A DNA stretch of 64,000 nucleotides from Candidatus Omnitrophota bacterium. GTDB taxonomy: Bacteria; Omnitrophota; Gorgyraeia; VGKN01. Below the pieces are notes generated by a model. That model searched no databases. It was not told the origin of the DNA and saw only the letters and a program-made list of their open reading frames with translations. The position numbers and the translations under genes were made by a program. The first letter of the stretch is position 1. Each line of letters starts with the position of its first letter. The stretch spans positions 27,340 through 91,339 of the forward strand of contig JAZDNB010000009.1 in the NCBI GenBank assembly GCA_043800345.1, given 5' to 3'. This document shows positions 1 to 63,852 of this stretch, piece by piece.

Positions 1-245
1 TAGGGGTAAACATAGATACGAGGGCACCGCCAACGAGGCAAGCCATCGTAAAGCTCCTCGGACCTCTTTCTAACATCATCCTCCTTAGCCTATCCTCATA
101 CCTCCTTGCCAATACCCAGCTCTCAGGGTTCCTCGGCGCTCTCACTATCTGGGTGGTTATCTCTTCAGCGTTCAGCATCGTTGCCTCAGTACGCGGCTAT
201 ACTACCTATAAGACAGGCGACCTCTACGAGGCGGTAGAGCTGCTC
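1..245 (+). repeat. Copy 1 (3' portion only) of the hydrophobic module. The window opens inside this repeat.
   Basis: Encodes GVNIDTRAPPTRQAIVKLLGPLSNIILLSLSSYLLANTQLSGFLGALTIWVVISSAFSIVASVRGYTTYKTGDLYEA. Aligns to 12328-12575 and 14455-14700. Confidence 0.85.
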
Positions 246-34426: not shown

Positions 34427-37400
34427 ATGATAGACTGGCAAACAGGAAATAAAAAATTTTGGATTCGCATAATAGCCATTATAATAGCCGAGGTTTTCTT
34501 TTTCACCGGTTTTGACCTTCCATGGGAAACTAATAGCCTGGCATACGCGGCCAGCGAAAAACTAGTTCCCCCCCTTAAGACCGATAAGGAAGGAACGGAT
34601 AGCAGAGAGGAAAATAGGGCAAATGTAATTAGTGCGTCTCTCCTTGTCTATTCGGAACTTTTCCCTCAATTATCCCCCCGCGAGATAATGCAGAAAGTTT
34701 CTAATGAACTGTGTTTTCCCATCACCTGGTACAATGCAATGGGTACCTTTCTGGAAGAGGAAAATGTTAACCCCCGCCATTATATTTTTGAAATTGGAAA
34801 TAAATATTATGAAGTAAAACTGGACATAGTAGAAAAAACCGTGATACAGCATCTAAGAGAGGTGCAACAAATAGTTATGGCACAAAAAATACAGCAAGGT
34901 GAATTTGTGTGTTTAGCTGATATTGTGCCTCAGGGATTGTTGACCGAAGCCAACCAAGGTAAGGCCAACATGAACATTTCCGAAGTAACCCTTCCGGAGG
35001 GAGTACACACTGTATTTAAAGTTGATGACGAAGGAAACATGAATATGGTATCGCAAGATGCGTTGCTAGAAGAAGCCAGAGAGGGCGTAGAATATAACAG
35101 CCTGTTTTTAAAAGTAGGTACGGTTGCCTATATAGTTTTATTAAGGGTCGGACTAGGTGCCGTAGGACCGGAGAATTTACCAAAAGAATTAGTAGAGATT
35201 ATCGGCACTAAAGCAGTAGAAGAATTATTGGCGTTAGATATGGCAAGACATGAAGAGCTTGGTTCGCTCGATGCTCCTTTCGTGCTTCGGTTCATGGATG
35301 TAACTGCTGCCTCTGAAACTCATTTTATGCTTGTAGAGAGCAAGGGAGGAGCGCTCCTGGATAATGAAGCGCGAAATATAACGGTGCTTGAAGTTGAAGC
35401 GGCGAATGTTGATTTTCCAGAATGGATGTGGCCGCGGCCTCACTCACCTCCGCAAGAGAACTCTTTTTTAGTCGCAGTTCTTCCTATCAAGCTTTCTATT
35501 GCCTCTACTACTACGGTAGCGGGTCTATCTGAAGATAAAGATTCAAGAAGAGAAACTGCGGGATTTCCTTCTCAAGATGAGGCCCTTCAACTTGTACAAG
35601 AAGCAAGTCAACATTTAAAAAGGGATGGTATAGTAGCGATTGGAAGTGACCCTTCCAGCATGACTTTTTTGGCGCCACAAGCTGTTGACTCAAAAGCCTC
35701 ACCGCTTCAAACCATACATCCTCAACAAACAAGCAGTGCTATTGTTAATGTTTCAAACACTGCGGCAGCAACTCCTGAGTTGCAGATAATAACCAGTACA
35801 ATAACGCCATCTCAGGAATTTACACCACCCACAGCCACCACAGCAGCCGTTTTCCCTGCAGGAACCACAACTCTTTCTTCTCGACTACCCACGGACATAG
35901 CCGGCACAGTAACATCATCGCAGGAATTTACAGAACCTGTCACTACAGTTCTATCTGCAATATCTCCTGAGGCATCAGTAGCTTCTCCCAAACCGCAAGT
36001 AGCAGTCACTTCAGTAACGCCGTCGCAGGAATTTGCAGCACCCATAGCCGTCGCAGGAGCTGTTATATCTGCAGAAACCACAACTATTTCTCCTGAACCG
36101 CGAGTAGTAGCTAGTACAATAGTACCATCGCAAGAATTTGCGAAGCCCACTGCTACAGTAGAAACCGTTATATCTCACACTATTCCTGTTCAAGCAATAT
36201 CTGTACCTCTAGGAGAAGGGGTAAGAGAGAGAGCTCAAAGAGCAATTACACCTTTAGCCGAGCGATATAGACGAGAGTCGCTAAAGATGCGCGAAAAATT
36301 GAATACATATACACCGCTTGAAAAGGTGTTGTCCGAAGAAATCCTGCCCGAACTAAAAAGATTATTTACACAATATCTTGAACATCCTGAGACTAGCAGG
36401 GAAAGTGGGCCTATTGCGGCGTTTCTTGTTTCTGGAGAAAGCGGAAGCGGGAAGACAACAAGTGTGAAACTAGCCAAAGAATTGTTTATTAAGGAATTAA
36501 CTGCTCTTGCCCTTAAAAAAGGCCGACAAATCGTAGAACCCGTTCTGCACTTACTTTTTGATGACTATATGTTACAGCAAGAAGATAGACCTATTGATCC
36601 CGCGACAGACAAAACTACAGAAAATCCACTTGAGAAATTTCAGATAGAAAGATTCCTGAAAGATTTGACAGCCCTCTTAAAAGGAAAAACAATCTATAAG
36701 CCCGTGTTTGATTCTGATACCAGAGGCCGTGTTAAGTTTGGATTAGATGATAGGGGGATATATGTGGTAAGCGGCTATGTTAAATTTGGTGATGAACGGA
36801 AAGAACTTAAATGTTATATAGAAGTAGATAGTCACACGCAAGTACCTTATCTTGTATTCGAAGGTAAACGATATACAGAGATGCCTTTTAGCTCAATCCC
36901 GATATCCGTTCGAAGGAATGAAAAAGGGAATATCGTTGTCAATATCAGGGGGAGCGATAATGTGATTATTAGTAATGAAGCAGGAGATATTTTTGTTTCT
37001 GCGGGTGATGTCAAGAGAACTCTCGAAAAAGAGAAACAATTAGAGGCGCTTGAAATAATATCACCCCAGGACAAGGTATTGATTATAGAGGGAATTTTGA
37101 CACTTTTTGATAAGGATTTGTGTGACAGATGCCTCACTATGGCGGTGAGAGGAGATTTTGATGCGCGCATACTACGCCAGCTTATCAGAGCGAGTAAAGA
37201 AACAGGACGTAAAACAAGTGACGAGGAATTTATTCGGCATCGTATCGAACTGGTAAATCAGGAAGAGGTTCCCTATGTTATTCCTACACTGAAAAATGCA
37301 CAATGGACTGTTACTACTCTCTCCCGCTCGGAGGCTATTTATGTTTTGTATAGGCATGGACAGCTAGAAAATCCTACTGCCAAGGTTCGCGGTGTCCTTA

Positions 37401-40400
37401 GACAATTAAGAATAGATCCTGCCGATTTAATGAAAGATTTACGGGATGTATATTTTGATGTGATTAAGGCCAGGTTAAGAACCGGGGGCGGTATAGAAAG
37501 CGAAACCACTGGCACTTCATTCAAGGTATTTATTGATACCGCAGGTCTGGTAATCAAGGTTCCTTTGGCGTCGTTTAGAAAAAAATTTGAAGATGAATTT
37601 ACCTCATTTTTCAATACCATTCTTAAAAAGAGGTTGGGCGGTATTATGGTACCGGGAGCTATAGTTAATTTAGGCACTGGCGGTTTGGGGCTTCATGTAA
37701 AACGATATGTAGGAAATGAAGAGAGGGAGCTGGAATGGGTTCTTATTCAGAATAGAGTAGAGCCACTGCGTACAAGGATTACAAGACTGGTTGCTCATGG
37801 TAACATAACCAAAGCCAAGCGGTTAATAGACCAGTATTTTGCACTTCAAAAAGAAATGTGGGCGCGGGGAGTTTTAGACACAGATCCAAAATTTATGGAA
37901 AAATACGGGCTCATGATTATTAACGGAGAAGAACGCTTGGTAGTGATCGGGGTAGACGGTTTGACTGCCAATGCCGATTTGTATGATCAGGAATTATATA
38001 GAAAAGATACTATACGTCCTGTTCATAAGAATCTCCCCTCTGTTGAACTTTTACAATATTATTACAAACAAGCAAACCAAATGCCATCTAAGGAAGATTT
38101 TATAGCGCGTCATTTTGAAACAAGAGAAGGAATGAAAAGAGCGCATACAGTGCCCGACATATCGGATATTGAAATAGCAAAGGAGCAAATGGGCCTTATT
38201 GTCTCAAGAGTAAAAGATGCTAAGATAAAAAGATTAAGAGAACTTTTTAGGACCATACGTTACGGCGCTGACAATCCATTTATTTACTGGGTGAAATTAT
38301 ATCTGGATACTATGTACGCCGATGCACCCCAATATAAAGTTGTAAATTCCCTCTACGAACAACTATTAAAATCTCCGAGTCTGATAGGGGCAGGACGTAT
38401 TGACGTTACATCGATAAGCGACTTAATTAAGGCTATGCCTCAGGCTGCTGAGTTGACCGCTTCTGAAATATACAATATTGCTGATGATATAAGTTCTTAC
38501 ACTCTGCTTCCAACAACAGAAAGTAAATCGGTAGCAAGCGCTCCTTCGTCCATCACAGCCGTCTCATGGCCTAATTTTATTGCGGGGGCATTAGCGGCAG
38601 GAATTATAATCATCCTGCAATATATGAATGTACTCCCTTACCAATATCTCGGCCTTATAAGCTTTATTTATTTTATTTCATTTTTGATTATCCACGAGCT
38701 TGGCCACTGGAAAGATACCGGATTTAGGAAATTTCCTCTCGGGGAACTTTTCAGTAAAGAAGGTATCTCCATACCGGGCTCGGAGGGCCTTTCGGGTATC
38801 AGGATTTCTTTTGCTTTCTTTATCGCCTCCATAGCGTTATTTGCGCTCTCTGCGATTTTCTTACCCCATTACGCAATATATCTTCTGCCCGCCGTTATCA
38901 TAAATTTTATCTATGCTGCTTCAATAGGAGATTGGAAAGATACACTGGCTAAAGTTCGGTTATCAGAACTCCAAAAGGGTACGGTAACCGCAGAAGAAGA
39001 TATTACCTTTTCAATAACAAGGGATTTTGCACAGAAATTTGTGCAAGGTGTCTATGATAATCTTGTGCCCGATGTTCTTAAACGCGTACGGGAAGGCGCA
39101 AGATTAAAACCGAGCATAAAAGAGGACGTGTTTAGTATCAATCCGATGGATGTCTCGGAGAATAGGCGTCTTATGAACAAGGCGCTTGATGATCTAATTG
39201 AGCATGAAGGGGACAGTGTTGAATTTACCATCCTTATGGGAGGACTGGCATCCCGCATGAGGAAAGAGCCTCCCGGAGAGCCTACTCAGGCATTGTTGCG
39301 GGATTATGTAACATGGTTATATAGCCAAGGGTTTGACCCCTTCGCATGGCTTCAGGAACGTTTGGGTATCTCGATAGATAAAAACGATATTAATGCACTG
39401 GCCTTAAATTATCCCACGAAAGGCATAATGCCTGTCGGCGTAGACGGGGAAGGCAGGTTTATCACCAAGGTCGGGGAATTTGCTATCGGTATTCGCAGGT
39501 TACAGGAACTTGTGAATGAAGAACGCAGAAGGCGCGGTAAGGCCGGGAACCCTATTAAATTCAAGATTATTTTAGCCGGAAACGAAGAGGCATATGATGC
39601 GGTTATGGATTGGGACCTTAGGGTCAATAATTACTATGGCCTTGAGCCCGGTCAATTTGAGCCTGCCAATGAGGTATTAGGGCGTTCTTTCGTATCCACG
39701 CCGGAATATGTGATGCGATATGCAGAAAATTTTGGCGGCCGTGACAGCGAAAGGTTTAAAAAAGCCATGCAGGCCGCAGAAGAGAGAAAAGGGGAGGTAC
39801 TTCCGGAGCTGACACCCTGGGGTCATGCTGAGTTTTTAATTCAGACCATCTCAAGCGGCCGCATTATAGAAAAAGCGAGGCGCGGTGCCTTTGCAAACTT
39901 TGTGCGCAATGTTGATAATAGCGGTGCAAAGATTGACTGGATGTGGCTTGTGGAATACGGAAAGGCCCTTGAGGCTCGCGAGCAGGGCAAGGAAATCGGC
40001 TTGGCCCTTGAAGTGAGCCAGCGTCCGCAGGGCGCAAGCGGAAAAGGCGGAGGATATTTTAAACTCGAAAAAGATGGGGAAACCCGCGATATTGTCCTTG
40101 AAGATTCGATATTGCAGATGGTGCGGAAGAATATCCGTCAGAGCGATTGTGCGCAGCTTGAAGAGAGAGGGTTTCATGTTGTTGTCGTTAGGGAGTATGA
40201 TTCAAAAATTATACCGAAGCTTGAGACACAAAAAGCTATGGTGCTTGATGCTTCCCAAGAACTTATTGACCTTCTTCCGGAAGAGATTATAACTACTCGC
40301 GGTACGCGATTAACTAAAGATAAAGTTTTAGAATGGATAAAAGAATACGGGAACACGCTCCCGCTCAACAAACGGCTTGAGATTTATTATAACCCGCAGA

Positions 40401-43400
40401 CAAAAGAAGTTGTGGCATATGAACAGCTGGTAGACCGCAGCTCATATTATGTAAATAATGCGGTAGGCACACTCTTCTGGGATGTTATATTAAAAGATAT
40501 TTTTGGATCATCGGTTGAAGAAATACTTGCGCTGGAGTCTCTTCCTGCGCAAAAGCAAAGGGAAGAGCTGCACAGAATAGCGGAACAGGGCCGTGTTAAA
40601 GCAAATCTTATTTTTGAACCCAAACCGCGCGTTACCGAAGACGAGGTAATCCCCATTATCCGCCCGGAAGGCAATATGTGGGACCTCTTAAAAGCAGTGC
40701 GGACGCTGGTGATAGGAGTAGAGTCGACCGAATCAGCGGCGCGCTCTATTGCTATGGATCCGGAAAATTCCAGGAGTTATGAAGAACAGACCCGTTTTGC
40801 GCCTGTCAAAAGCTGGCTGGATTCTGACCTGTATGCAAAAGATCTCAATAAGACCATCCTTGATTATATGCTTTACGGAGATATTTTCAATCCTGCTTCG
40901 GCCCTGCCCTATCCCCGTAAGGCTCAGGAAATGAGCATAGCGGAACTTTTAGTGGAATATCTTCACAAGGTTCCAGGTTCGGAACATTATTTTGATCACC
41001 CTCTTATGCGCGAAAATTTAATCTCTTATTTAGACGGCAGTCCGCACATCGCCGTTCCTTTAGCGTCTACTTCTGAAAAAATCAAGGTATATGCGGTTCG
41101 TGCAGACATGGGGGTTATTCTTATTGCGCTCAATCTCGGAGAATTTACATATCCGGATCCGCGCGACGGCCGCCAGAAGGCATGGACCTCGCTTTACGGA
41201 AGGAAGAGCATTGAAACAGTGTTGGGCAGAGAGTCATTGGATGAATTGGGAAGCGTTTACCAGGCACAGGATGTTGTTACCTCAGAGGTTTATAGAAGGT
41301 ATACCGTCGCCGATTTAGTAAGAGACGGTCTTGATATCGGAATACCGGAACCCGGTATTCATATAGTACGTTTGACTCCCACAGGCCAGATCAATGAAGG
41401 CGTTGTTCAACCGGTTCCCAGCGAAGATTTTTCTGATATCCTTGCCCTTGCCGTAAAAGGGGCAGTAGCCGGAGAGTTGACGGCAGCCGAGAAGATAGGC
41501 CAAGAAATTTTGAGATTATCCGAAGAAAATCCCGCTCTGCTTAAGACAAAACTGCAGGAGATTACCCGCCTTAGCCCGGAACGTGCGCAGGAAAAATTCG
41601 GATCTGACGGAATATGTGCGGTTATGGCATTAATAGCCACAGTTATACCCGACTTATTGATTGATATGAAGGATTGGAATAGAGAAACATATGATGCCCT
41701 GAGCGATATAGTTACCTATAAAGACAATGCCGATTTATTCAGAGAAGGAAAACTTACTATCCACCTGACAGATCGCAAAACTGCCCTTGTGATTTCCAAG
41801 TCATTTAAAGACAGGCGTCTTTTTATCCCCATACACTTTGCATCGCGTCCTTATCGCCTTACTGACGGTAAAGCATGGTTTAGGATATTGGATCTGGACT
41901 CGGTAGGCGTGTATTCAGACAGGACGTGTTACAGGGTCTATGATTATACGCTTATGCACGAAGAAGGGAAAAGAGGCGGTTTTTATGCTACAGAACATGT
42001 CGGTGAAGATCTTGTCGAGAACGGCTGGGCAATAGGAGTTCCCGTGATTAATGTCGGGACAAAGACAGAGCAGAATGCCCCGCTTCGTTTCCAGATTTTA
42101 GAACTTTACAGGGTGAGTATTGATACGACGTTGACTGGTCCTAGAATTATGGCCGAGATAGTATCTTCTGCTAGCATGCTTACACAAGGGAGAACGTTAA
42201 GAGATGTATTACACAAAATCTCTTCCGTTATTTCCAGATTACAAGTTAGTATCAGTAATCCAAAGACATTACGTAAGCTCTTCTTCTTGCTGGTAATAAG
42301 TGGTTTTGTTTTATTCTTATTAACGGGATGTGCTCCGACCCCGACCGTTAGCGAGAAACCGTTTCTTTTAACACTCATGGAAAATACTGTTAAACTAGCG
42401 CTGTATCTTATTGCAATTGCTGTCGCTGTCTTTGCCGTGATTATTTATGCTATTAGCGGGTTAATAAGCGAAATTATACGTCTCTTTGTAAGAAGAATTA
42501 TGCCCCTATTGCGATCTAGCATTAAAAAACAATCTCCCCATATAGATGTTACAGGACCTCCGCTTCCTTCAGGCCCATTATTTGAAAGATTGTGGGAAGG
42601 AATAGGAGAGTTAACCCCTGACTGGGAAAGAATGACTCTCGTAGCCAATGTGGTACTTGAGCTTATGCAGGCTCGGGAAGAACCGGTGGCACTCGATGAT
42701 CTTTTAGGCCCGTGCCTTGCCCTCCTTAGTGCACATGGTTTTTTTGACACCCCTGTTAAGGTCAGTGAATTATTACATCGCCTGGTAGCGTGCGGTGCGC
42801 TCAGGGAAGAAGGCGGAAGATATGCACTGGCATTACCGGCGCGCATAGTTGCGGTTAAGACAGATAATGTGTATTACATACTAAAAGATATTAAAACTGC
42901 ATTGGACAATATACGAGGCAGAAAACAGGAGGCCTCGGTTAATTTAGAAAATATTATCAGAGAGTATGCGCAGGCAGCTGAATTATGGCCTATGTATCCG
43001 CTAGAGAATCGTTGGCCTATTTTAAGAGCGGTGGCCCTGCTTGATAAAGCTGACCAAAAGCTTTTGATACGCTTCCTTAAATCAAAACCGTCATTACAGA
43101 AATATTACCTTGTCGATTCAATACTGCTTATGTGTAAGGAATTGTCGAAAAATTGGCTTAAGACCCAGGCTTCTCATTTGATAGGACGTACTGTTTACTA
43201 TATAACCAGCGAGTGCTGGCATCTTGCAGGGGGGCTTGGCCGCGTATCGCAATATCATACTGCGGCAATGAAGCAATTGGTCGGAAACAATGCACAAGTT
43301 GCCACAATAGAGCCGTACTATCGTTATAGGCTTAATAAGAGCGGTGAATTAGAAGAAATTGATTACGGTAGTTTACCAATACCCGTTGAGGATCTTCGAG

Positions 43401-46400
43401 CAGAGCCTATTTTTGAATATGAAGTAACCGTCAAAGGAAAACAGGTTACTGCGCAGGTTTTTAAGGGAAAAAATAAGTTAGGTCTAGAGGTTTATTTGAT
43501 AAGAGACAAGGAAGACTATTATACGCGGATGCTCTATAGATATAGTCAATATGGTACGGCAAGCTGGGAAGAATTTTCCGAGTTCATATCCAGAGCCTCG
43601 CTGGAACTAGTAGAGCGGTTAGAATCCGAAAACAAAAAGAAAATGGGAAACAACTGGAAGGCGCCCGTGGTCATTGCAAACGACGGACAACTGGGGGTCT
43701 TTCCTCTTTTCAGGCGTATGCATTATGCCGCAAGCGAGATATTTGGCAATATCCTCGTTTGGTTTGTTACGCATACGTATAAAAATAGGGGTGTTTTTGA
43801 AGGCCGTGATGCAACCGGCCTGGGCTTAAATAATGCGGATAGGGCAAGTACGGTGAGTGCCGTAATCAGAGATGATGTTGCGCCGCGCGATCCGCAGGTA
43901 GCATTAACAGCAGTAACAAACGGCGATAATAGGGAATATTCGGCAAAGGTATTCAGGGAGATATTGCTTGGTTTATTCCCCGATGCGGATGTAGAAGAGC
44001 CTACTATAGAACAGATAATAGCCGCAAAACAGGAAGCCAAGCGCAGGTTAAATCTAAATCCCGACCAGATTGTAATCTCGTATTCCGGCAGGCTTGTTGA
44101 AGAAAAGGCGGGACGTAAAAGGGCATTTACAGATTCCAATATACTGGATTGGGTCAAAGCAGGGGCGCAGGTGATTATCTATGGTAATGTGCAGGCGCAC
44201 ACACAGGCTATGTACGATGATCTGAAAGCACTTGAGGCAAGATTAAATACAGCAGGTTATCCCGGGAAACTTATCGTAATGACGGGTTGGGGCATTACCG
44301 AACAGCTTGATTTATTAGCGGCAACCGATATCCAGGTCCAGGATTCTGACCGTGCGACAGGGGCCTCTGAATATACCGAGGCAGATATCTCGGCTAACGG
44401 AGGACTGCAATTTGGTCCGCCCTGGCTTGAGGGAATCATACAGCGCCAGGGTGTTGTCTTAAACCGGAATGTTGCCGGTTGGGGTAACACGATAATTCCG
44501 AGGGATTATTCACCCGAAGCATATTTGGAAGCGCTTATGTGGGCAGTGAGCACTTTTAAAGAAAATCGTGAAAAATTTGCCGCATACCAGGCTACCTCGG
44601 TAAGGTTAAGCCGCATATTGGAGGCATTATTAACGGGCGCGGAATATCTAAGACAGTGTGATAGGGCAGTGCGCCTAAAAGAAAACCCGCTTGAGCTCTT
44701 GACAGATTTTATTAAAGGAGACAGGGATGTTGAAAGGTATTTAGGGACCGAACGTACAAAAGCAGATTTAGTGGGCTATTTAGACGCTAATGCCTCGGCA
44801 ACACCCAGGGAATTTCATGAAAAAGAAACTGCGATTTTCCCGCTCAAATCCATGGCAGAAAAAATCAAACTATATGCCGTGAAACTTTCGGGAGAAGTTT
44901 TTATCGTTGCCGTTAATACGGGAGAATTCCAATATCAGGGTCAGAAGATAAAAAAGGCATGGAGCCTACTTTATTCTACGCAGAGCCTTGAAGCACTCTT
45001 AGGAGGGGAGGATATCTATGAGCTCTTTAACGTATATCAGGTCGAAGATGCGGTATCTACCGTAGGCGAGCTTTATGGGCGCTATGCGGTATGGGAATTA
45101 TTAGACCGCGGCCTGTCTATCGGTGTACCTGAGCCGGGGCTGCAGATTCTGAGGCTAAGAAGAACCGAAGAAGTAAGAAAAATGCCGAAAAAAGAAATTG
45201 TAAAACAGAATATCCCGAATATGATAGCAGCCGCAATCAACGAAGAGATTATAGAAGGAACCAGCTCGCCTGCGGAATTGTTAACCCATATCATCCCGCA
45301 GTATGTCAACCGTCCGGATGAACTAAAAGATATACTGAGAGAAATTTCCGGCCTTGCCCTTGATGATGCGCGTGCGATGTTTTCCGAAGAGGGGATTCCC
45401 GCAGTTATGGCATTTGTCGGTTTTCTCGTTCCGGAACTTCTTGAGGAGATGAAGGACTGGAATAGCGAGGTCTATAGTATGCTTGATTCGGCGATAAATA
45501 ACGGATTAAACCGGGATTTATTCAGGGAAGGAGAAATCGGATTTCACAAGGCAGACAGAAACACTGCCCTTGTGCTTTCGAGGACTCTTAACGGCCGTCG
45601 CATATTTGTCCCCATCCATTTTGCGAAAAAACCGTATGATGAAGCAGAAGGCAAGGTGCGCTTTAAAGTAGACGGAATGGGTGCGTTGGGTTATGAAGGG
45701 CAAGCTACCCATACGATATTTGACCATATCATGCGATCCTTTTATCCTCCACTATATACCGGTGATGATTTAGCGCGCGGATGGAGGATAGATATTCCCG
45801 TGGTTTCAGGCAAGAAAGATACCAATGGTTTTATTCAGCACGGATGGCGTTTTCAGATTTTGGAAATAGACGCACCCGTGAGTGCGTGGGATATTGTTGA
45901 TCAATTAGGCGAGAGTGCCGCGTCAGCATTAGAATATTTCATTACACCAAGGCAGGCGAAAGACAATAAAACTATTTGTCAGATTGCAACGAGGTTTGTC
46001 GGGCCGTGGGATGAAATAGAGACAAAGATACTTTCCGAGGTAGAAACATTGGGGCTGCCTAAAAATGCCCTTGTACATCTTGTGGGCGCGCTTCCCGTTG
46101 GAATGATGAGCCACAAGTTGAATGATTTCCAGATACCTCATGATGGCAGGGCGACAGGTTTATATTGGTTGGACGTAGAGGGTAAAGGCAAGGTCGTTAT
46201 TAAAAATCCGTATAACGGCCAAAACGGCATGACTGCTTCAATGTTTTCCATTACTGATCCGGCAGGGAACAAGGGTAAGATAGCGTCCATCGCTGCAAAA
46301 TTACATGAGGCAGGGTATCGGGCAGTAATTGATTTTGCCGGTCATGTGGCGGTTGACAGTCCGATTGTTTTCGAACATCCGGATTGGTTTAAGCCATATT

Positions 46401-49400: not shown

Positions 49401-52400
49401 GGGGGTATCACGCATTATTTAATCTCTCGCCGGCGTACCAAGAGGCATTATTGCTGCTTCTTGAAATAAAATTTCTCTATAGCATTAGGTTCACCGCGCG
49501 GGAGCGAACCAGATATCTTTTGTATGTAGAGGCTCATGATAAACGTAAATACGAATTATTTATGCGGTTGTCAGCCAAAGATCAGGATTCGGCTGCTATG
49601 GTACGCAGGAAATGGTTTAAAGGTATTGATATTGCACTGCTCGCCGAAGAGATAGCGCTCTATCTTAAGGGGGAGCATCCTCGCGACAAGGCATTTGCCG
49701 ATTTTATTAAGGTTGCAAGAAGAGGCAAGGGCAGGTTGCTGCTCAATGAGCTTATAAAAATACTCTCCCCGCTTTCGCAAAACGCTCTCTCCCTTAATTT
49801 TTCAAAACGAAATTTAAGGCTCGCCTATCTTCTTAAAACATGCAAAGAAATTCTAGGAGAGGTTACAAAAGAAGATAAGGCCGGATTATTGCAGTCTCTT
49901 AATATTCCCTCGGAAGACGACCTTTTGGCTATAGATATCGGGATACTTAAAGAGAGCATTTATAGGCTTAGACAATATGGGCTTACCGTTACCGCAGAAA
50001 GGCTAAGGCTTGACGAAGGCGAGATAGCGGGAGAGTTTCAAAAAGAAATTGCCGGTTTTATAGGAATGCTTGCAGGAAGCGATGAAGAGCAAATACGAAA
50101 TGCGGTGCAGAGACTTAAGCTTATGTATATGCTGCAACCAAAGCTTTTCATGAAGGGTACCTCCGATGGAAAAGACCTGGGTAGTCATAGGTCTTCCATC
50201 GTCCCGGTAAAGAGCGCGGTAAAACTTACTTATTTCGGAGGGGATGAAATAAACTGCGGTGGAATACTCATAGAAGACGGCCGGGAAAAATTAAAAACGA
50301 GCCTGCTCATTGACCCCGGTATAAGCATGGATAGAGAAGCGGAACTCTATTCTAAGATATATATGCGCGACAGGGTAGTGCACCTGGGGATAAGAGACCG
50401 GCTTATTAACGGTCTTATGCCAAGACTTAAGGGCTTATACAGGCCGGACCTTACCGAACCAAGCATGAAAATATCGGCTGCTACGCCTCCCGTAGACGGT
50501 ATTTTGGTAACACACGCTCATATAGACCACATAGGAAATATTGCGTATATCAGGAATGATATCCCCATATGGGTAAGCCCCGAGACGCGTGCGGTTTTAC
50601 GCACATTGGATAAAACAGGCGCAGACATAAAAAATGAATATTTTGATTTTGTAGACAGAGAAACCGGAAGAATGATCCGCAGAAAGATAAATGTGTTTGA
50701 ATATGATGTGCCCTTTATGGTAGGCAAACTTAAGGTTATAGCTAAGCGCGTTGATCATTCGGCAGTAGGTGCGTGTGCGTTTTTTGTAGAAACATCCCAG
50801 GGCTGGGTTTCATATGTCGGGGATATGAGGATGAACTATTCAAGAGATACCGCGGGTACGCTACGGTCGTTTAAGAACCGGACAGAGGATTATATCGAGG
50901 CGGCGCGTCAGCTGTCTCCCGTGGTGCTCTATATAGACGGAACAAATTTTGAGAAACCTCATACCAAAGATACCGAAGAGGATATCGGCAAAAGAACAGA
51001 TGAGCTGTTACAAGGCGATGAAGTAAAAAGAAAACCCGTAGTAGTGAGTTTTAGTTATTTAAATCTGGAAAGGATGAAAATCTTTCTTGAGGCTGCGAAA
51101 AGAAACGCAAGAAAGCTTGTCATCTCCATGAAAGAGGCATATCTGCTTGAATCTCTTAAAGAGATTTTCCTTAGAATGTACTTGGCAAAAAATGGATTTG
51201 AAGAGTTGATTATAATCGTCGATAGGGCAGATATGGCGGCGAGGGTATTACTCCACAGGAAAGAAGAGGGGGCGTTACGCGATGTCATGCTTTGCGGAGT
51301 TATGGTACATATGGAGAACTATTATGCAAGTGGGCTTCTACAGGCTTGTATGGGTTCCGTTGATGCACAACAAGCACAATTAATAGCCTTGGCGCTCGGT
51401 TACAGCAAAGGCAAGCCCCCTAAAACCGACAAGGGCATACCCGAAGCCCGAATAGAGGAATTATTTACCGGCGAAACCGCAGAGGCCATTGCGGCGCGTG
51501 CCGTATTTTTCAAGTGGTTGCATGGTGTGCAAGAAGTTAAGGCGCCGGATGAAATAATGGAGCAGATAGCCGGGCGTTATGTGATTGAGCAGGGCATGGT
51601 GAATGCTGAGGCGGAAAAAGTAAAAACCGAGGGCCACGAGATGCAAAAGTTACTTAAAGAAACCTTTGCGGTATTAGAAAAAACTAACCTGGAAGATCTC
51701 TCCGAGAAAATAGAAAAATTTAGCATGGAAGATTACGGCTATCCCGATCTTGAAAAGGAAGAAGGGTTGCTCGTATATCAGGCCAGAAAAAAAACCGGCA
51801 CATATGACGAAACAAAAGATTACCGCAGGTTTGAAAGGTCCATTCTTGCCAACCCGCGCATACGACGGATAAGAAAAGAAGAAGCCGCTCAACAAAAAAG
51901 CGAACTAATGATTTGTCTTAATACCTACGAGATATCCGAGATACTTGGTATTTTTAAATACGGAGAAGGCGGGGTACATATATATTCTCAATCGCCTCCG
52001 TTTAACGTTGAAACCGAGATAGCCGAAGATAAACTGGATGAATGGCTGGCTGATTATAAAATGACCAAGCGCTATATCCATGCCTCCGGCCATCTTACGG
52101 CAGAACAGATTCCCGATGCGGTGCGCACGATACAACCCGCAAGCGTTTATGTAGTCCATTCCAAAAACAGGGGGTCGCTTGCGCGGATGCTGAGAGAAAA
52201 TGTCATGGCGCAGGGACAAACTACTGTAGTGCTCTACGCCAAGCAATATTCCCTGCTTGAAGGTGAGAGCCGATTTGAATCCCTTCCGGAAGATGTTGCA
52301 AAGATGCTCCCTGAAGCCTCAAGGATATTTTTAAGCCGTCTTACCAAGGACCAGATAGCGGGCATTGTCGAGGAACTGAGCGTTGTCAAAAAGGACGTTA

Positions 52401-55400
52401 CCATCCAGGAGGAAATAAGCGCTATCTTCAGGGATGCGAAACGAAGAGCGAGAATTTTTACGTATGCAGAAAGGCCGGATTCAAAAAACATCGATGATAT
52501 TGCCGATAAAATAGAAGAGCTGCGGCTGTACTTTAAAAGTCAGCTTATAAGGATCCAGATGCAGGAAATGCTCGGTGTGGTCTCCGGTGAAGAACTAAAA
52601 AATGCGAGGTTGGTTCTTTCTGACCGTATCTTCAATGCGCTTGTTGATGAAATAGCAATGCCAAGCCTGATAGCGAGGCTTACCGATAGCATAAAAGAGA
52701 ATACCGGCATATCAATGACAGCGGCGCGAAAAGAAGCGAGAAACATATTTGTATACAGAATAAAGAGAAAATCCGCCGCATTGCTTTTCCATCACTGGGA
52801 AGAGACTAGGGGACCGCTTCGCTTTATGATGATATTTAAGGAAGGCATGAAACCGCTCTATGCCAAACTTGTTACCGGGATAGTTTATGATACCGTAGCG
52901 GAATTTTTTAAAGGATTAGAAGGCGAATTCGAACTTCCCGTACCCGTTGGCGGCAGCATAGATGCCGCAATACGAATAATGGCAAAAGGAGAGCAGGTAC
53001 TCCGTGAGGATGAAAAGGAATATGCGAAAGATATCATCGACGGCCTTGTAATGGCGGTAGCGGACAAAGATCTTATGAAGCAGTTAAAGACAATGGCTCT
53101 TCTATATGCAAGCAGGGGCGTGAGCAGATTACGCAGACGTCCCGAGCAAGGACCAACGCCTGTCGACAGGACCTATGAGGCTATAGTCAATATTATAACA
53201 GAGCTTATTCAAACTATAGCAAGCGGTGATGTCGTGCTTTCCGAAAAACAAGTGAGCGCTTTTTCCTCATTGATAGCCACGAGGATTCTTTCGGAGGTAG
53301 CAAGACAGTTGACGTCGGGAGAAATTACGCTGTCTGAGTTGGCGCGTATTTTAAGGAGCCTCGGTGCCTTAACCGCCTCCCCCCGTAAATCATCACCCGG
53401 ACAGAAAGAACAAGACACAGGTATAAGTATTTCTTCTCCGATAAAAGATATCATCGTTTCGGTAATAACGCGACCTCCTGCAGTTTTAATTGGCATGGAA
53501 TTAATACTGGATATCGGTAACCGTAGTGCGCTCTTTAATTCCATCACTCAATTTTTAATGTACGGCGGGAAAATTATTATGAGCGTGGAGGCAGACAATT
53601 CACAAGTTACCTATGAATTCAGAAAGGCCTTGGTGACATATATCAGGGGTCTTTATCCGTTGGGCGCGCCGGAAGATATGACAGGCGGAATAATTTTAGA
53701 GGATAGCGGAAGGTATTATAATCTGGATAATATATCTTTAAAAGACATTCCCAGGACAGATGTTACCCTATCAGATGATAAACCCCTCAAAGAACAGCTT
53801 GAGGAGCTCATAAAGATCATACGAAAGCAGACCAATGAGATGAGTTTAACCGAGGAAACCGAATGGTATAAAACAAACATAGCTTTGCTTGCGCAGCATG
53901 GTTTAGCGGACAAAGGTGATAAACTTGCACGGGATAGATTTTTACCCCACAAAATTAAACTTTTGAAAGAATTCTCTCTTGACCTGGGGATGATTGATAG
54001 GTATGCACTTTCGACTCTCCAGAGGCGTATCGCAAATCTTAAAGCATACGGTAGCGAGGTAACCGCCAGCAATCTTAGATTGACAAAAGAGCAGTTAGTC
54101 AGGACATACCGCACGACAGTATTACAGTTGCTTCAGAAAGAGCCTGCCGAAGATGTGATCGTGCGCCTTAAAGAACTTTTTAAACTTCAACCCGCTTTAT
54201 TTATGTCAGTGACTGCGGGAGGACGTTTGCTCGGGCAAAGAAGAAAAGATGTAATACCCGAGGCAGTAGGAGGTATTACCTTCTATGGTTCCGTAGGCAA
54301 GATAGGTGGCAATATCATAATGGTTCGGGATGTGGACAGTAAAATAGTTTTAGATATGGGTGCCGCAGGGCACAGTTGGGGAGAATATTTTTCCGGGTGG
54401 AGTAGTTTTAAAGTTCATGAGATGGTAGACGGAAGTCTTGAAGTTGGAATATTGCCGTGGTTGCCTGATGCCATGAGGGAGGATATGTTAAAAGGTAAAA
54501 GCGGCATGATTCCTATCGAGAGCCAAGGCGTAAAGGCGGTTCTTCTTACCCACGCACATCTTGACCATGTTGAGAGCCTTTATGCTCTTGATCCGGATGT
54601 GCTGGTTATTTGCTCCGAAGAAACAAAAGCGACGCTGGAAACGCTTCAGTGGCAGACGCCGGGGAGCATTAGGACGGAGTTAGTTGAGGTAAAAGACAGA
54701 ACCGATATGACTACCATTCCTTATCCGAGATTACCGCGTAACATGGTTACCTTCAGGAGGGATACCCCGTTTCAGGTAGGTTCTTTTAAAATAACGCCTG
54801 TGAGGGTGGGGCATTCCGTACCTTCCGATGCCTTTGTAGTAGAGACTTCTATGGGTAAGATCGTATATACCGGTGATCTCACCGTGCAGAGTCATGACGG
54901 GGCCCGTACGAGAGAATTTTTTGATATGCTTGCTAAAGAACATAATATCCTTGCGCTTATCACGGAAGGCGTTAATGTGCGTTATGAAAAACCCGCTACC
55001 ATCGCAACCGAAGAGGAATATGCACAACGCACAGACCAGATTATCAAGGCGTCAAAAGGAAAGCCTGTTTTTACAAGTTTTTCCTGGATGTATGTGAATA
55101 GGCTTAAAACGTATTATGCACTTGCCAAGGCAAATAAGAGGAAATTAGTAGTACCTCTTAGGAGTCTCTATTATGCGATGAAATTACGCGAACTCGGTTA
55201 TGATATACCCGACCTTTTAAGCGATCCGGATGTGCTCGTTCATGTTCCGGAGAGAAAATGGCAGTACACTATACATCAGTTTATCTATCAGTTGTTCGGA
55301 AAGGTGGCCGACGTAAGAGGAACAAAGGTCAGGCAAAAATTGCCCACCCAGACTAAGATATACGGCGAACTTCCCGACGAAAGAATGGTTAATTCGGAAT

Positions 55401-58400
55401 GGTTATCCAAGGCGCGCAATTACCGCGACCTTATCGTGATCTTGCCGCTTCCTCAGCTTAACGAATGGGATACTATTTTACCCCATTACGATTCGCCTTT
55501 TATATATTCATTAGGAGCGGTATTTAATAAGGACATGGAACAGCTCCAGGAAAAAATACGTCAATGGACAGATAAATACGAATTGGTCTGGGAGAATCTG
55601 TATGTATCTCCCCATATAGAAGAAGCGGACCTGGTCGAGGCAATACGTAGGGCGGTTGATGCCGGTTCTAAGTACGTACTCCCCATTCATACGGAATTTC
55701 CCGAGAGGTTCGGACAGCTTCTTCCGTCATCTGACGCATTCATGTTGTCTGAACCGCTGAGAGAATATACGCTCTTAAAAAGCGAGGATAGGGTCCGTAT
55801 TGCGCATTCCATGCTTCAGATTGAGGGCTTAGAGGGCCCCTTAGTTGATTTTATTAACAACGCTACGGATGCTGATAGTATCAGCCTGCTGGAAGATGTA
55901 CATAGTACGAAAGATAAGACTCGGTTTGATTCGGAAATAAAAAGTTTGATTACGGATTTTGAATCAAAGGTTATGCGGGTTTCGGAGGAAGATTTTGTTC
56001 GTATTGTCCGCGCATATGTTACGGGCCAGACTCTCAGATTAAGGATACGCGCCGAATATTCGCTTGCCTCTGCGGATGAAATAGCCAGAGAATATGCAGC
56101 GCTTTATTCGGCACTGCTTGAGACTGTGGTAGGATTTAACAGATTAAATAATCCTTTACCGGATTTACGTATGTTTGTCGCAGTAGTCGTAGGGGATTTC
56201 TCGAACATCGGAAAAAATCTTAAAGACGCGCAGATTATCTTCACGTATGATGCCCCAAGGGAAAGTAAGGGCGCGCGGAGTGCGGTAATCCTCAGCCGCC
56301 TTACCTCGGAAATGATGTACAAAATAACGGGCGTAGTAGGCATCGATCCCGCAAACGATTTTGATAAAAGGTTATCTTTCGTAAGAGAAAGAATAAATGC
56401 CCTGAATTTCTGGACGGTCAAAAGAAACCGCGATAAAGCAAAGCTTGCGTACGCACCTGCCTATGCAGGAGGCGGCGATGCCACCCTGGTGCAGGAATTA
56501 GCAACGATTCTTAAGACCGCACGTGTCATACAGGAGAGAGAAGTTATAGCAGAACTGCCTGATGGCCTAAAGGAGATATTTGAACCCTTGCGCGGAAAGC
56601 TCTCCAGGAATTCCGAAAGGCTTTTGGGTAGATTAAAAACAGCCGACGCCGTGAGACTTTTGAATTCGCTCTCAAGAGTAAAAAGCCGTGCCGATATGGA
56701 GACGGAACTCGCCCAGTATGAAAGGATAAAAGCTACCGGTAATGCGGCGTTATATTACTACCAGGCTCAGATGTTGCGCCTTGAGGTCGCCGGTATATAC
56801 CATGCGGTAAGCGACGATGAGTTAAGAAGTCAGAAGATTATCCTTGCCGGGTTATGCAAGATAGAGACCTCGGTCGCAGAAACTAAGCCTCAAGCAGAAC
56901 CGCCTGTTATGGTAAGCGCTCAGATGTCTATCCAGCAACAGGTGGAACGTGCATGGCAGGATGAGAACGGGCAGTTAAACCAGATAAAAAGGCGCCTTGA
57001 AGGTTTAATAGAAGAGATAGCGCAGGGCTATTCCCTTGTAGTTATTGCCCCTCATAATCTTGTTGGCTTGCCCATAGATGCCGATTCTTTCACTTTTGCC
57101 ACAACCGTATATCACAGGTTAAGCAGTGAGGCGGAAAAAATAGGAAGAAAGGTAGTTGTTATTACCGATCCTTCCGAGGCAAAAGATGCCGCGAATACGC
57201 TTTATATTTGTATTTTTCCGATATCTCATCAAAACGAAGGTTATGTGGATGCCGATAAACAAATGCTTCGCCTGCCGGAGGTAAAAGGAAAACGGGCCCT
57301 ATTCGTAGGAGACGTTCGCTTTTATCAGCCCGACGCATACAAGCGGAAGGATTCCTTCGGTTTTGATACGATGGTCGTTCAGGATCATCATCAATGGAAC
57401 GATGAATTTATAGAGAAAATGGATGCTTTTTCCGACGAACACACGCTTTTTGTTAACAACCATCTCATACTTAAAGATGAAAAGGCCGATACCTATGCTA
57501 CCGGCGCATTCTGTGCAGACCTCATGGGGACGGAACTTGATCCCTGGTATCTCTTTGCAAAACAATTATCCCTTTTTGGCGATAAGTATCACTTGCATTT
57601 TTCAAAGTTTACTCAAGGGCTTGATGTAAAAGAGGCTGAATATGTCGCTGAAATGCTCACCCTATGCGGTACATATCTGCAAGGTTGGAGCGCAACCACT
57701 GTCCAAAAAAACAAGGTTGTGGCAGAGATTATTGAAACGGTTTCTTCAAGCGATTCTTTCGGCCAATTAAAAGAGAACCTTGAACGAATTACCTCCCTCA
57801 AATTCGGAGCTGATTTTACAAAATGGCACAGGGGCATTATGCAAGACGTGGAAGATTCTATAAGAGATTTTCTTGTCTCTGACGACAAGATTTATTTTTA
57901 TCGCATACAATCAAAAGATAACATAGCGCTTCTTGTTCATAGGATAGTATTCGGCCGTCTTAACGCACTGGGTGAATTTAAAGACAGGATACTCATACAT
58001 TATTATGTCAGAGAAGACGGCAATCTGGATGTGCTTTTAGCGCGGGGGTCTGATTTTACCGCAATCGATGTAAGCGATGTATGTCTGCACGGTCCTGAGG
58101 GAAAATCCTGGGGAGGTGGACATAAAGACCGGGCAGGTTTTAGTACGGCAAGTGTAAAGGAATGGATGGGTGAGGACGCAGAGCAGGGCCAGGAAAAAGT
58201 GCTGGATTTCATTCTTTCCAACCTCAAGGAACAATACGTCCGTTACTATGGGCCAATACGTTATATAAGCGATGTTCATGGTAGCCCTGAGTTGGTAGAA
58301 CAGCAACTTATAGATGCACTTACATGGGCGGGTAATGGCGGCATAGTGATATGCGAACAACTTACCGAAAAGGATCTTGACATATACAGAAGAGTGGCGC

Positions 58401-62499: not shown

Positions 62500-63852
62500 A
62501 TGCCGCTTAAGAAAAAAAAGCTTTTCTTTATGGTGTTTATAGTCATAGCAGGTGTCCTTATTCTCTACGCCTATAACACATTTATAAGAAAACCAAAACC
62601 GCTTAAAGAGGAAGGGGTAAAAAAAGAAGAGGTTCAGAAAGAAGAACAGATTATACCGGTACGAGTCTTTAAGGTTGCAAAACAGGATTTTGTCGATTAT
62701 TTTCCCAGCATGGGTACTGCAAAGGGCGCGGCGGAGGTGAATCTTAAATTTGAAGCCACAGGTGCTATTGAGGCACTGAACTATAAAGAGGGTGATGTAA
62801 TAAAAAGAGGCGATGTGATCGCTACATTAAATCAAAGAGATGCACAGCTTAATATTGAATACAATAAGTCTAAGTTAAAAACAGCCCAGGCAGAGACTCA
62901 GGCAGTTAAGAAACGCCTGGAGGTATATCAAAAGCTCTATGAAGCAGGTTCAATCATAAAAGCAAAATTGGATGAGATAACGCAGGAATTTGAGGTAGCA
63001 AAATCAAAGGTAGAAACGGCGAAGCTCGAGGTGGAACACGCTGAAAATGAGCTGGAGAAACAATCCCTCTTTGCGCCGATAGACGGAGTCCTGACGGCAA
63101 AGGATGTCGAGATCGGAGAACTTGCAAATGCCAATACAAAGGTGGGGACTCTTAGCGATCTCAGTGTTATGTATATAGAAATAGGGCTTACCGAGAGCGA
63201 TATCGAGAAGATAAAGGTAGGACAGACTGCAAAGCTTAATTTTGATACATACCCCAACCAAGAGTTTAATGGTGTTATTGATAACATATTCCCGCAGATA
63301 GAAGGTAAAAGCAGGACCCTTACGGTAAAAATAAAGGTTGATAACAAGGATTTGCTGATTAAGCCGGGGATGTTTTCCAGGGTAGCAATAAAAATATTCG
63401 AAAAAAAAGATGCCTTGCTTATACCGGTTGGCGCCTTACGGGGTAAAGAAGGAAAGTATTTCCTATTTTTAGCAAAACAAGAGGGGGCTGCGCCACAGCA
63501 AGAGGACAAAAAAGAAGAACCGGGAAAATACGTGGCCCTCCAACGGGAAGTGAAGCCGGAATATAGGACAATAGAATCAGCTGTTATCAAAGAAGGCTTA
63601 AGCGAGGGAGATCTGGTGGTTACGGAGTCGCAGGGGGAACTGAAGGACAAAAGCCCCTGTGAAGTATTAGAAATACAAGAATCCGGTTCTAAAGAATCGC
63701 AAAAAACGGAATCGGAAAATGAACAGCCCATGCTAGAAAATCCGGAGTCTGCCCAGCCTCCGTCAAATTTGCTGGACATGCAAAAAATTATGGAAGAAAA
63801 ACTTAAAGATAAAAATGCCGAATCTGAGCAACCGGACGTAAGTCAAGAATAG
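62500..63852 (+). CDS. HlyD-family membrane-fusion (periplasmic adaptor) protein of a tripartite efflux system
   Basis: Strong Shine-Dalgarno GAGGAGG 6-7 nt before the ATG. N-terminal TM anchor MPLKKKKLFFMVFIVIAGVLILYAY. Lipoyl/biotinyl-like segment KEGDVIKRGDVIATL. Coiled-coil hairpin rich in A/E/K. Beta-barrel segment VGQTAKLNFDTYPNQEFNGVIDNIFPQIEGKSRTLTVKIKVDN typical of RND/ABC efflux MFPs. Charged low-complexity C-terminal tail. Confidence 0.75.
   Translation: MPLKKKKLFFMVFIVIAGVLILYAYNTFIRKPKPLKEEGVKKEEVQKEEQIIPVRVFKVAKQDFVDYFPSMGTAKGAAEVNLKFEATGAIEALNYKEGDVIKRGDVIATLNQRDAQLNIEYNKSKLKTAQAETQAVKKRLEVYQKLYEAGSIIKAKLDEITQEFEVAKSKVETAKLEVEHAENELEKQSLFAPIDGVLTAKDVEIGELANANTKVGTLSDLSVMYIEIGLTESDIEKIKVGQTAKLNFDTYPNQEFNGVIDNIFPQIEGKSRTLTVKIKVDNKDLLIKPGMFSRVAIKIFEKKDALLIPVGALRGKEGKYFLFLAKQEGAAPQQEDKKEEPGKYVALQREVKPEYRTIESAVIKEGLSEGDLVVTESQGELKDKSPCEVLEIQESGSKESQKTESENEQPMLENPESAQPPSNLLDMQKIMEEKLKDKNAESEQPDVSQE

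Follow-up and report, generated by a model that had tools for sequence, protein, structure and literature searches.

The 64,000-nucleotide stretch of DNA studied here (the window; contig JAZDNB010000009.1, positions 27,340 to 91,339, assembly GCA_043800345.1, Candidatus Omnitrophota bacterium) contains an open reading frame (ORF) whose product, giant protein 2 (P2), is, to judge from its sequence, a mosaic, that is, an end-to-end fusion of units found as separate proteins elsewhere. In order, these units are a kinase of the Udk/PRK type, a probable UDPGP, an alpha-glucan unit of composition GT5-X-GH13 and a nuclease unit of ~3,500 amino acids (aa). Giant multi-enzyme membrane proteins are already known; what is new is this conserved, rare nuclease cassette of ~3,500 residues. 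P2 is, we think, probably a multi-pass giant of the "multi-enzyme metabolic" class, whose nuclease unit scavenges nucleic acids for a host-dependent bacterium.

34427 to 59404, + strand: P2, a complete unbroken ORF of 24,978 nucleotides (nt) encoding 8,325 aa

An earlier examination of the letters alone (hereafter, the sequence-only reading) had described the span 36380-58200, which corresponds to P2 aa ~652-7925, as a membrane-anchored fusion of RNA-degradation modules with sugar enzymes. The motifs that it quoted are all found in P2 where it placed them, and some 12 hydrophobic segments bear out the term "membrane-anchored". The nuclease part, which carries our argument, is made up as follows (P0001, P0003, P0009 and P0010 are relatives considered below).

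48977 to 50173 (aa 4851-5249), + strand: conserved region ahead of the first metallo-beta-lactamase (MBL) module; its last ~85 residues recur ahead of MBL module 2
50174 to 52336 (aa 5250-5970), + strand: MBL/beta-CASP nuclease module 1, with an insert of ~250 aa within the beta-CASP part
52337 to 54223 (aa 5971-6599), + strand: conserved linker between the MBL modules, 35-43% identical to P0001, P0010 and P0009
54224 to 55846 (aa 6600-7140), + strand: MBL/beta-CASP nuclease module 2
56996 to 58240 (aa 7524-7938), + strand: DHH-DHHA1 phosphoesterase domain with a helical insert
58286 to 59320 (aa 7954-8298), + strand: conserved C-terminal domain of the nuclease unit, 25-32% identical to parts of P0003 and P0010

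Both MBL modules match Lactamase_B_2 above its cut-off of 27 bits (module 1: aa 5345-5468, E value 6.7e-13, 49.1 bits; module 2: aa ~6700-6830, E 8.3e-11, 42.3 bits). In the PDB, module 1 matches EF2904 (2az4, E 8.7e-14) and RNase J (8e-7), and the best match of module 2 is the RNase J of T. thermophilus (3bk1, 4.8e-10); the alignments of both modules run on into the beta-CASP part and cover the C-terminal motifs H-x-S-G-H / H. The RMMBL profile stays below threshold in module 1 (E 0.02, 15.3 bits vs 21.6), whereas the orthologous module of P0009 scores 22.3 and passes. An MBL profile match, an inserted beta-CASP part and a C-terminal segment of RMMBL type thus place both modules in the beta-CASP subgroup. 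They had been called RNase J-like, and this holds as far as the nearest neighbours are concerned: the best named family is TIGR00649, the RNase J beta-CASP family (module 1: E 1.9e-11, 43.1 bits; module 2: E 2.3e-18, 65.9 bits). However, the cut-off of that family is 400 bits, the scores against NF047419 (43.6 and 44.5 bits) compare with a cut-off of 820, and neither module has a recognisable RNase J C-terminal domain. On these matches they are best classed as beta-CASP nucleases nearest to RNase J and EF2904, and not as RNase J proper.

The ligand motifs can be followed through both modules, as LIDPG, HAHIDH (aa 5363), DHS, GD, IDGTN, HASGH (aa 5885) and VHS in module 1 and as LDMG, HAHLDH (aa 6709), GHS, GD, TEG, VSPH and IHT in module 2. 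MBL motifs 1-4 and beta-CASP motifs A-C are kept in P0001/P0003, P0009 and P0010 at overall identities of 28-56%, with a single exception (GD replaced by GN in module 1 of P0009). Since the catalytic residues are kept at such identities, we see here the mark of purifying selection; such a pattern is what one would expect of active enzymes, and the catalytic apparatus appears to be functional. The two modules with their leader regions also form an internal duplication of P2 (aa 5165-5580 and 6519-6923, ~30% identity). Of the other parts, the pre-MBL region gave one Pfam signal, a weak one to HHH_6 (E 0.013), the inter-MBL linker had no Pfam match, and the C-terminal domain had none in Pfam or NCBIfam. 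A motif SDVHG in this C-terminal domain was considered as a metallophosphatase motif and rejected, being replaced by NDIPS in a relative.

The DHH region, taken as a single sequence, has no match in Pfam (DHH, PF01368, and DHHA1: none at E <= 1), NCBIfam or the sequences of the PDB. When 1.84 billion representatives were searched exhaustively with HMMER, only 12 relatives of it came to light, and in the 13 aligned members of the family the motifs DxD, D, DHH, D and GGGH..R.G are invariant or nearly so; in P2 they read IDADS, FVGD, QDHH (QDHHQ at aa 7652), GAFCAD and GGGHKDRAG (aa 7896). Pfam DHH itself matches three of ten family members weakly (best E 0.055). An AlphaFold2 model built from the relatives' alignment reached a predicted local distance difference test score (pLDDT) of 91.4 and a predicted template-modelling score of 0.90, and the top 29 Foldseek hits of this model in the PDB are all DHH/DHHA1 enzymes (PAP phosphatase, RecJ, TM1595, DhhP, GdpP and Rv2837c among them). 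The two-domain DHH-DHHA1 fold with its catalytic motifs is thereby confirmed at the level of the model. The epithet "NrnA-like" in the sequence-only reading was nevertheless too specific: NrnA-type proteins are compact (~310-330 aa), with a short linker and NrnA as closest structure, whereas in P2 a helical insert of ~110 residues separates DHH from DHHA1, no NrnA hidden Markov model (HMM) of NCBIfam matches, and the model is closest to structures of the archaeal RecJ/PF0399 type. The modelled domain resembles NrnA less than it does the archaeal RecJ/GAN type. As for the catalytic residues on which the nuclease calls had been made to depend, the MBL/beta-CASP and DHH sets are both complete and conserved across the relatives.

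The relatives are what indicate the mosaic origin of P2. P0010 is a complete standalone gene (4,091 aa) that matches P2 aa 4952-8296 throughout, in the order MBL-MBL-DHH-C-terminal domain. On contig CAWCFT010000006.1, from a metagenome-assembled genome labelled Endomicrobiales, equivalents of P2 aa 4851-8298 follow each other in the same order, with a dCMP/cytidine deaminase inserted ahead of the DHH domain and HD_4, ASCH and YunG behind the C-terminal domain, and this contig carries none of the sugar modules of P2. In P0009 a DHH-like domain is followed by a further MBL-MBL unit, the whole lying directly behind an ORF of 3,238 aa (TIM, HAD, HEAT, PHP), and in P0013 a DHH-like domain is joined to an adenylate kinase. 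In every relative found, the nuclease block comes without the sugar block. P0017 and P0088 (~1,750 aa), for their part, have GT5-X-GH13 in the order of P2 and no nucleases, P0017 being a standalone gene, and P0014 carries a UDPGP-like unit. The nuclease unit is seldom met: a word-indexed search with aa 6600-8325 returned one relative only, pattern scans of JGI metagenome contigs with the alignments of the DHH region and of MBL module 1 returned none, and a scan of the genome collection for the unit returned only the Endomicrobiales-labelled contig. The fusion of sugar and nuclease blocks is seen in P2 only and appears to be specific to this lineage; because the units occur alone elsewhere, the linkage is not a conserved one. 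To the functional coupling that had been proposed for P2, of RNA degradation with UDP-sugar and glucan enzymes, conservation therefore lends no support, as the blocks occur apart.

In the Endomicrobiales-labelled genome the giant gene is spread over four overlapping ORFs (534, 2,202, 4,083 and 1,278 aa; locus L001 8380-16357, locus L002 4157-20192). The split is one of apparent frameshifts, which may be assembly errors; joined, the ORFs would give ~8,000 aa.

The sugar part of P2 contains the following units.

36344 to 37396 (aa ~640-990), + strand: P-loop kinase of the uridine-kinase/PRK family with an insertion of ~160 aa (Pfam PRK, NCBIfam)
39017 to 40906 (aa 1531-2160), + strand: probable UDPGP-family nucleotidyltransferase (near-threshold HMM matches, collinear motifs)
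40943 to 42175 (aa 2173-2583), + strand: domain X copy 1, following the UDPGP-like unit and ~35% identical to copy 2
42566 to 44686 (aa 2714-3420), + strand: GT5 unit of the glycogen/starch-synthase type with a conserved N-terminal extension (Pfam Glyco_transf_5)
44693 to 45922 (aa 3423-3832), + strand: domain X copy 2, following the GT5 unit
45974 to 47566 (aa 3850-4380), + strand: GH13 alpha-amylase-family catalytic domain (Pfam, NCBIfam, PDB)

The kinase passes the Pfam PRK cut-off (E 1e-8, 35.7 bits vs 22) and has its Walker A motif, GESGSGKTT, at aa 670. Its best NCBIfam match is uridine kinase (NF004018 / TIGR00235; E 1.4e-14, 54 bits vs a cut-off of 180), divided in two by the ~160-aa insert. 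The uridine-kinase-like P-loop of the sequence-only reading is thus upheld: membership of the PRK family is clear from the profile, and uridine kinase function is predicted. The GT5 and GH13 assignments held as well. The GT5 unit passes Glyco_transf_5 (PF08323; aa 2923-3137, E 1.9e-14, 54.4 bits, cut-off 22.7); the GlgA equivalogs give at most 28.6 bits against cut-offs of at least 560, the KxGGL site reads LAGGLG, with no lysine, and the region has no PDB sequence match at E <= 0.1. Its 82 relatives include many proteins of ~830 aa without membrane helices, and the best-scoring named ones, ~50% identical, are mostly "glycogen/starch synthase" entries of Ca. Omnitrophica/Omnitrophota. We consider it, on sequence grounds, a member of a distinct and widespread GT5-like clade. 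The GH13 domain matches Pfam Alpha-amylase (E 4.4e-7, 29.9 bits, cut-off 22), NCBIfam MalA/cyclomaltodextrinase (E 2.4e-11, far below the curated cut-off) and, in the PDB, the alpha-amylase 4e2o (E 2e-11). DFAGH (region I), GIDGFRCD (II) and GNHD (IV) are aligned, as is region III (FLHED), where the acid/base residue is placed with an ambiguity of one residue, so that by alignment regions I-IV with the catalytic Asp/Glu/Asp are all present.

The certainty is less for the UDPGP unit, which had been called a UDPGP pyrophosphorylase and which we regard as probable, not proven; of the seven domains named in the sequence-only reading, the other six are confirmed. In P2 the profile (PF01704) gives E 0.066 and 12.3 bits vs a cut-off of 22; in P0014, the only homologue of this region and 49% identical there, the same part of the profile gives E 1.2e-4 and 21.4 bits vs 22. 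A profile of the two sequences aligns with the Leishmania UGPase in the PDB (E 0.13) over PWGH..SG..NVDNSGAKID and, separately, RFAPVK, the motifs MGGLASRM and KGGG stand in the expected order by eye, and an AlphaFold2 model from the two-sequence alignment was unusable (pLDDT 43.6). Domain X, of ~410 residues, is partly kept behind GT5 in the relatives P0016, P0017 and P0029; it has no Pfam match, and a profile of the two copies has no PDB sequence match. To the eye it recalls the C-terminal beta-sandwiches of alpha-amylases, a likeness for which we make no claim.

The membrane elements of P2 bear both on the side of the membrane where its units lie and on the way in which the gene may have grown.

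34457 to 34513 (aa 11-29), + strand: N-terminal hydrophobic segment, signal or anchor (Kyte-Doolittle scan)
38519 to 38962 (aa 1365-1512), + strand: four-helix HELGH membrane module copy 1, 58% identical to copy 2
42278 to 42472 (aa 2618-2682), + strand: transmembrane hairpin, its outer flanks strongly basic, with an LLTGC that resembles a lipobox
48224 to 48667 (aa 4600-4747), + strand: four-helix HELGH membrane module copy 2
48776 to 48838 (aa 4784-4804), + strand: single transmembrane helix ahead of the nuclease unit (Kyte-Doolittle scan)

Our view of the topology is based on a hydropathy scan and the positive-inside rule. The ~12 segments of the scan include aa 11-29 (preceded by KK, followed by an acidic flank and a possible AYA|AS cleavage site), four at 1383-1500, the hairpin at 2618-2682, four at 4618-4737, and 4784-4804; P0001 and P0010 have a hydrophobic segment at the position equivalent to the last, which in P0010 is a signal-like N-terminus. 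Since the flanks of the hairpin are basic and the standalone GT5 units have neither membrane helix nor signal peptide, the glucan section is most simply cytoplasmic, and the five helices predicted between it and the nuclease unit would put the latter on the opposite side of the membrane, in agreement with the signal-like N-terminus of P0010. A nuclease unit outside the cytoplasmic membrane, with the sugar enzymes inside, is thus our leading layout, one that we consider unproven and uncertain. The first arm of the hairpin before GT5 resembles an internal lipoprotein signal peptide, KTLRK-LFFLLVISGFVLFLL-TGC (window 42317-42331, aa 2631-2635).

The HELGH modules matched no peptidase family, the sole signal being a weak one to Rhomboid_2 (E 0.011). 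Within these otherwise diverged modules lies a near-identical direct repeat of ~102 nt (38614-38715 and 48319-48420): in its core of 34 codons only two differ, both synonymously, whereas 30 of the 49 codons in the flanks that encode identical amino acids differ. A near-identical core between diverged flanks suggests recent gene conversion. The two copies are 9,705 nt apart and in frame, so that a recombination event joining them would cut out UDPGP, GT5 and GH13 cleanly. The HELGH of copy 1 (aa 1423, membrane-embedded) stands ~90-110 residues upstream of the UDPGP-like unit, as does a HELSH in P0014 (aa 351), and this adjacency of an HExxH with a UDPGP-like unit seems to be conserved.

What, then, would the nuclease unit do? 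In the scheme that we favour, that of nucleic-acid scavenging, the two beta-CASP modules would cut RNA and/or single-stranded DNA, the DHH module would then turn short oligonucleotides into mononucleotides, and these would supply the host-dependent cell through salvage. Such a role fits the recurrent neighbours of the unit in its relatives (dCMP/cytidine deaminase, HD_4, ASCH, YunG and adenylate kinase), and it fits the Udk kinase of P2 itself as well as the phosphoribosyltransferase, the PfkB kinase and the weak adenosine-deaminase match of the neighbouring giant protein 1 (P1).

Several points weigh against this picture. Both MBL modules fall far under the RNase J cut-off, the DHH module alone gets no Pfam or NCBIfam match, and the UDPGP match is below threshold and its structure model failed. 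The closest relative of the nuclease unit is labelled Endomicrobiales, the affinity with Omnitrophota coming from the names of the GT5 relatives. The clues to topology conflict, three mutually inconsistent layouts being possible: the N-terminal anchor puts the front half of P2 outside unless aa 226-244 form a helix, a signal-like N-terminal segment precedes the UDPGP-like unit in P0014, and the Endomicrobiales-labelled relative has a signal-like peptide and one clear helix before its nuclease unit. The same difficulty with topology has been reported for published giant proteins (West-Roberts et al. 2023, bioRxiv 10.1101/2023.11.21.568195).

That RNA is a substrate we only infer, since the MBL modules are beta-CASP nucleases and not RNase J proper. 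One may therefore ask whether the unit acts on DNA instead (resection of single-stranded DNA, uptake and degradation, or repair) in the manner of a beta-CASP enzyme of the SNM1/Artemis type with a RecJ exonuclease. We think this possible but rather unlikely, because the best MBL matches are RNase J, EF2904 and RNA enzymes of the CPSF/Integrator type, not SNM1/Artemis, and because the weak match to RMMBL, a profile labelled for RNA specificity, rises above threshold in P0009. The relative with an ASCH domain (the Pfam label says "ASCH domain" only) points the same way, this domain being, as we take it, associated with RNA.

A second alternative takes the order of the modules literally and sees in P2 a channelled pipeline within one polypeptide, in which RNA would be degraded to mononucleotides, uridine re-phosphorylated, and UTP passed through UDPGP to UDP-glucose and on to an alpha-glucan made by GT5 and GH13. 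All module types are indeed in one ORF with their catalytic motifs intact, the adjacent P1 adds a UDP-glucose dehydrogenase, a galactokinase, a phosphoribosyltransferase and a PfkB kinase, and P0009 directly follows a giant ORF with TIM, HAD and PHP. We nevertheless hold it to be unlikely: Udk, UDPGP, GT5 and GH13 are absent from the relatives of the nuclease unit (P0010, the Endomicrobiales-labelled contig, P0009 and P0013), GT5-X-GH13 and ~830-aa GT5 proteins exist without nucleases, the linking 5'-nucleotidase (from nucleoside monophosphate to nucleoside) and the nucleoside mono- and diphosphate kinases were not found in P2, and, with an odd number of helices between them, the two halves would be expected on different sides of the membrane.

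Alternatively, the giant ORF could be a vehicle for delivery or co-expression, a polyprotein cut into independent enzymes, perhaps by the HELGH modules. These four-helix modules stand exactly at unit boundaries (aa 1365-1512 and 4600-4747), P1 has a membrane-embedded HEFTH and P0014 its HELSH ~90 aa ahead of the UDPGP-like unit, the units exist as separate proteins elsewhere, and it has been suggested that giant proteins are processed by proteolysis (West-Roberts et al. 2023, bioRxiv 10.1101/2023.11.21.568195). But there is no peptidase family behind the HELGH modules beyond the weak Rhomboid_2 signal, and neither a third zinc ligand nor a cleavage site was identified, so this interpretation appears doubtful to us. 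We would give as little credit to a bolder extension of the leading layout, a trans-membrane machine of a host-dependent or predatory bacterium that would digest outside and assimilate inside. In that case the beta-CASP pair and the RecJ-like DHH domain, extracytoplasmic, would reduce RNA and DNA of the host or prey at the cell surface, and the cytoplasmic kinase, UDPGP, GT5 and GH13 would take up what is released and store carbon as glucan. A dual role would fall to the repeated HExxH membrane modules, as processing or gating elements and as junctions, homogenised by gene conversion, for the in-frame shuffling or deletion of cassettes.

An artefact, be it a chimeric or wrongly assembled contig or a set of degenerate pseudo-domains that have no function, is very improbable: the ~102-nt direct repeat could mislead an assembler and apparent frameshifts break up the closest relative, but a stop-free ORF of 24,978 nt is impossible by chance, both copies of the repeat lie on one contig along a single consistent path, the order of the nuclease block is identical in P0010 and on the Endomicrobiales-labelled contig, and catalytic residues are conserved at 28-56% identity. 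An anti-phage defence module within the giant protein is hardly more credible, for although MBL/beta-CASP nucleases are known in some defence systems and there is a weak Cas14 MBL-CASP match (E 7e-6), aa 4830-8325 have no PADLOC family match at E <= 0.01 and the neighbouring genes are metabolic or transport genes.

How far, then, does the scavenging giant that we favour resemble systems already described? Giant proteins of Omnitrophota ("Archaeovorins") have many membrane helices, with the glycogen-synthase-like GT5 as their second commonest domain, and very large genes also occur in Elusimicrobiota (West-Roberts et al. 2023, bioRxiv 10.1101/2023.11.21.568195). A class of "multi-enzyme metabolic clusters" has since been defined, and PF08323 is found in 153 long proteins (Nielsen & Lui 2026, bioRxiv 10.64898/2026.06.07.730766). 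With its 8,325 aa, ~12 transmembrane segments, at least six enzyme families and a GT5 domain, P2 fits this giant multi-enzyme class, and it shares with the Omnitrophota giants a very long ORF, many helices, diverse and divergent enzyme domains and a prominent GT5; the neighbouring P1 has HEAT repeats and GT1/GT4 in common with them. It differs from them in that 8.3 kaa is under the 10-kaa cut-off of the catalogues, in that no SecA-DEAD domain was detected in it, and in its downstream flank, which is of TolC/HlyD type and does not carry type II/IV secretion genes (the upstream flank is beyond the window). The published giants are mostly sequence-unique (West-Roberts et al. 2023; Nielsen & Lui 2026). 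The sequence-only reading had held such a fusion to be undescribed. Membrane multi-enzyme giants rich in GT5 are in fact published, and the claim survives for the nuclease content, since MBL, beta-CASP, DHH and nucleases go unmentioned in the main texts of both West-Roberts 2023 and Nielsen & Lui 2026.

Among nucleases, the P2 modules share MBL motifs 1-4 and beta-CASP motifs A-C with RNase J and with EF2904 (uncharacterised, PDB 2az4), and differ from RNase J by their scores (43 and 66 bits vs 400), by the ~250-aa insert of module 1 and by standing in tandem within a unit of 3,500 aa. In Haloferax volcanii, the beta-CASP enzyme aRNase J is physically complexed with the DHH proteins RecJ3/4, and the complex degrades RNA and single-stranded DNA (PMC10470531). 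The pairing of a beta-CASP nuclease with a DHH domain of archaeal RecJ type is the same in P2, but the Haloferax complex is non-covalent and cytoplasmic, made of separate small proteins, and tied to ubiquitin-like modification and recovery from DNA damage, whereas in P2 the partners are fused in a membrane giant of bacterial type. The nanoRNases and pAp phosphatases of the NrnA/TM1595/Rv2837c type share the two-domain DHH-DHHA1 fold and the motifs DxD, D, DHH, D and GGGH; they are unlike P2 in lacking the ~110-residue helical insert between the domains, and P2 has no NrnA HMM match. On the sugar side, P2 aa 2714-3420 align end to end, at 40-50% identity, with standalone glycogen/starch synthases of ~830 aa from uncultured bacteria and archaea. 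These proteins and the ~1,750-aa GT5-X-GH13 ones are separate and mostly soluble-looking, whereas GT5-X-GH13 in P2 has membrane modules on either side and is joined in one chain with the kinase, the UDPGP-like and the nuclease units.

Giant multi-enzyme proteins have been recognised only recently in ultra-small, host-dependent bacteria and are poorly understood, and the published emphasis has been on adhesion, cell-wall attack and sugar metabolism. Here we see a nuclease block that moves between giant proteins and accompanies nucleotide-salvage enzymes; if it is active, nucleic-acid scavenging would be a further task of such proteins, and the three compact nuclease domains of P2 are suited to expression and assay. 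The picture of giants put together from cassettes that also occur as ordinary proteins, and that are parted by repeated membrane modules undergoing gene conversion, also offers a concrete and testable model of how giant genes grow and vary.

The remaining observations concern the locus. The P2 ORF starts with ATG after an AT-rich gap of 146 nt behind P1, with AAAGG 10 nt upstream. Near its N-terminus, at aa ~430-590 (window 35714-36196), P2 is rich in Pro/Thr/Ser/Ala and has four repeats of ~34 residues around "(T/V)(P/S)SQEF", probably a flexible linker; a DNA repeat scan detected no tandem DNA repeats in P2, this stretch included. The other genes of the window are the following.

153 to 34280, open to the window start, + strand: P1 (giant protein 1), at least 11,375 aa
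59755 to 62454, + strand: TolC-like outer-membrane factor of 899 aa with unusual AMIN and UvrB/C (UVR) motifs
62500 to 63852, + strand: HlyD-type membrane-fusion protein of 450 aa

An inner-membrane partner (ABC or RND) of the TolC/HlyD pair, if there is one, would lie beyond the window, and the pair is not kept beside the nuclease unit in the relative loci L002, L003 and L004. P1 contains HEAT repeats, GT4/GT1, an ARMT1-like phosphatase, UDP-glucose dehydrogenase (apparently in more than one copy), a phosphoribosyltransferase (Pribosyltran), a galactokinase (GHMP), a PfkB kinase, a DUF294 nucleotidyltransferase and the weak adenosine-deaminase (A_deaminase) match; its membrane-embedded HEFTH motif is at aa 8536. 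A membrane module of P1 (GVNIDTRAPP.RQAIVKLLGPLSNIILLSLS...) is present in three copies (window 1-252, 12328-12579 and 14455-14706) with 78-89% DNA identity, and, since one copy stands at the window start without an in-frame stop, P1 must run past the left edge and exceed 11,375 aa. The DNA of this repeated membrane module is also found at 12150-12449 and 14277-14576.

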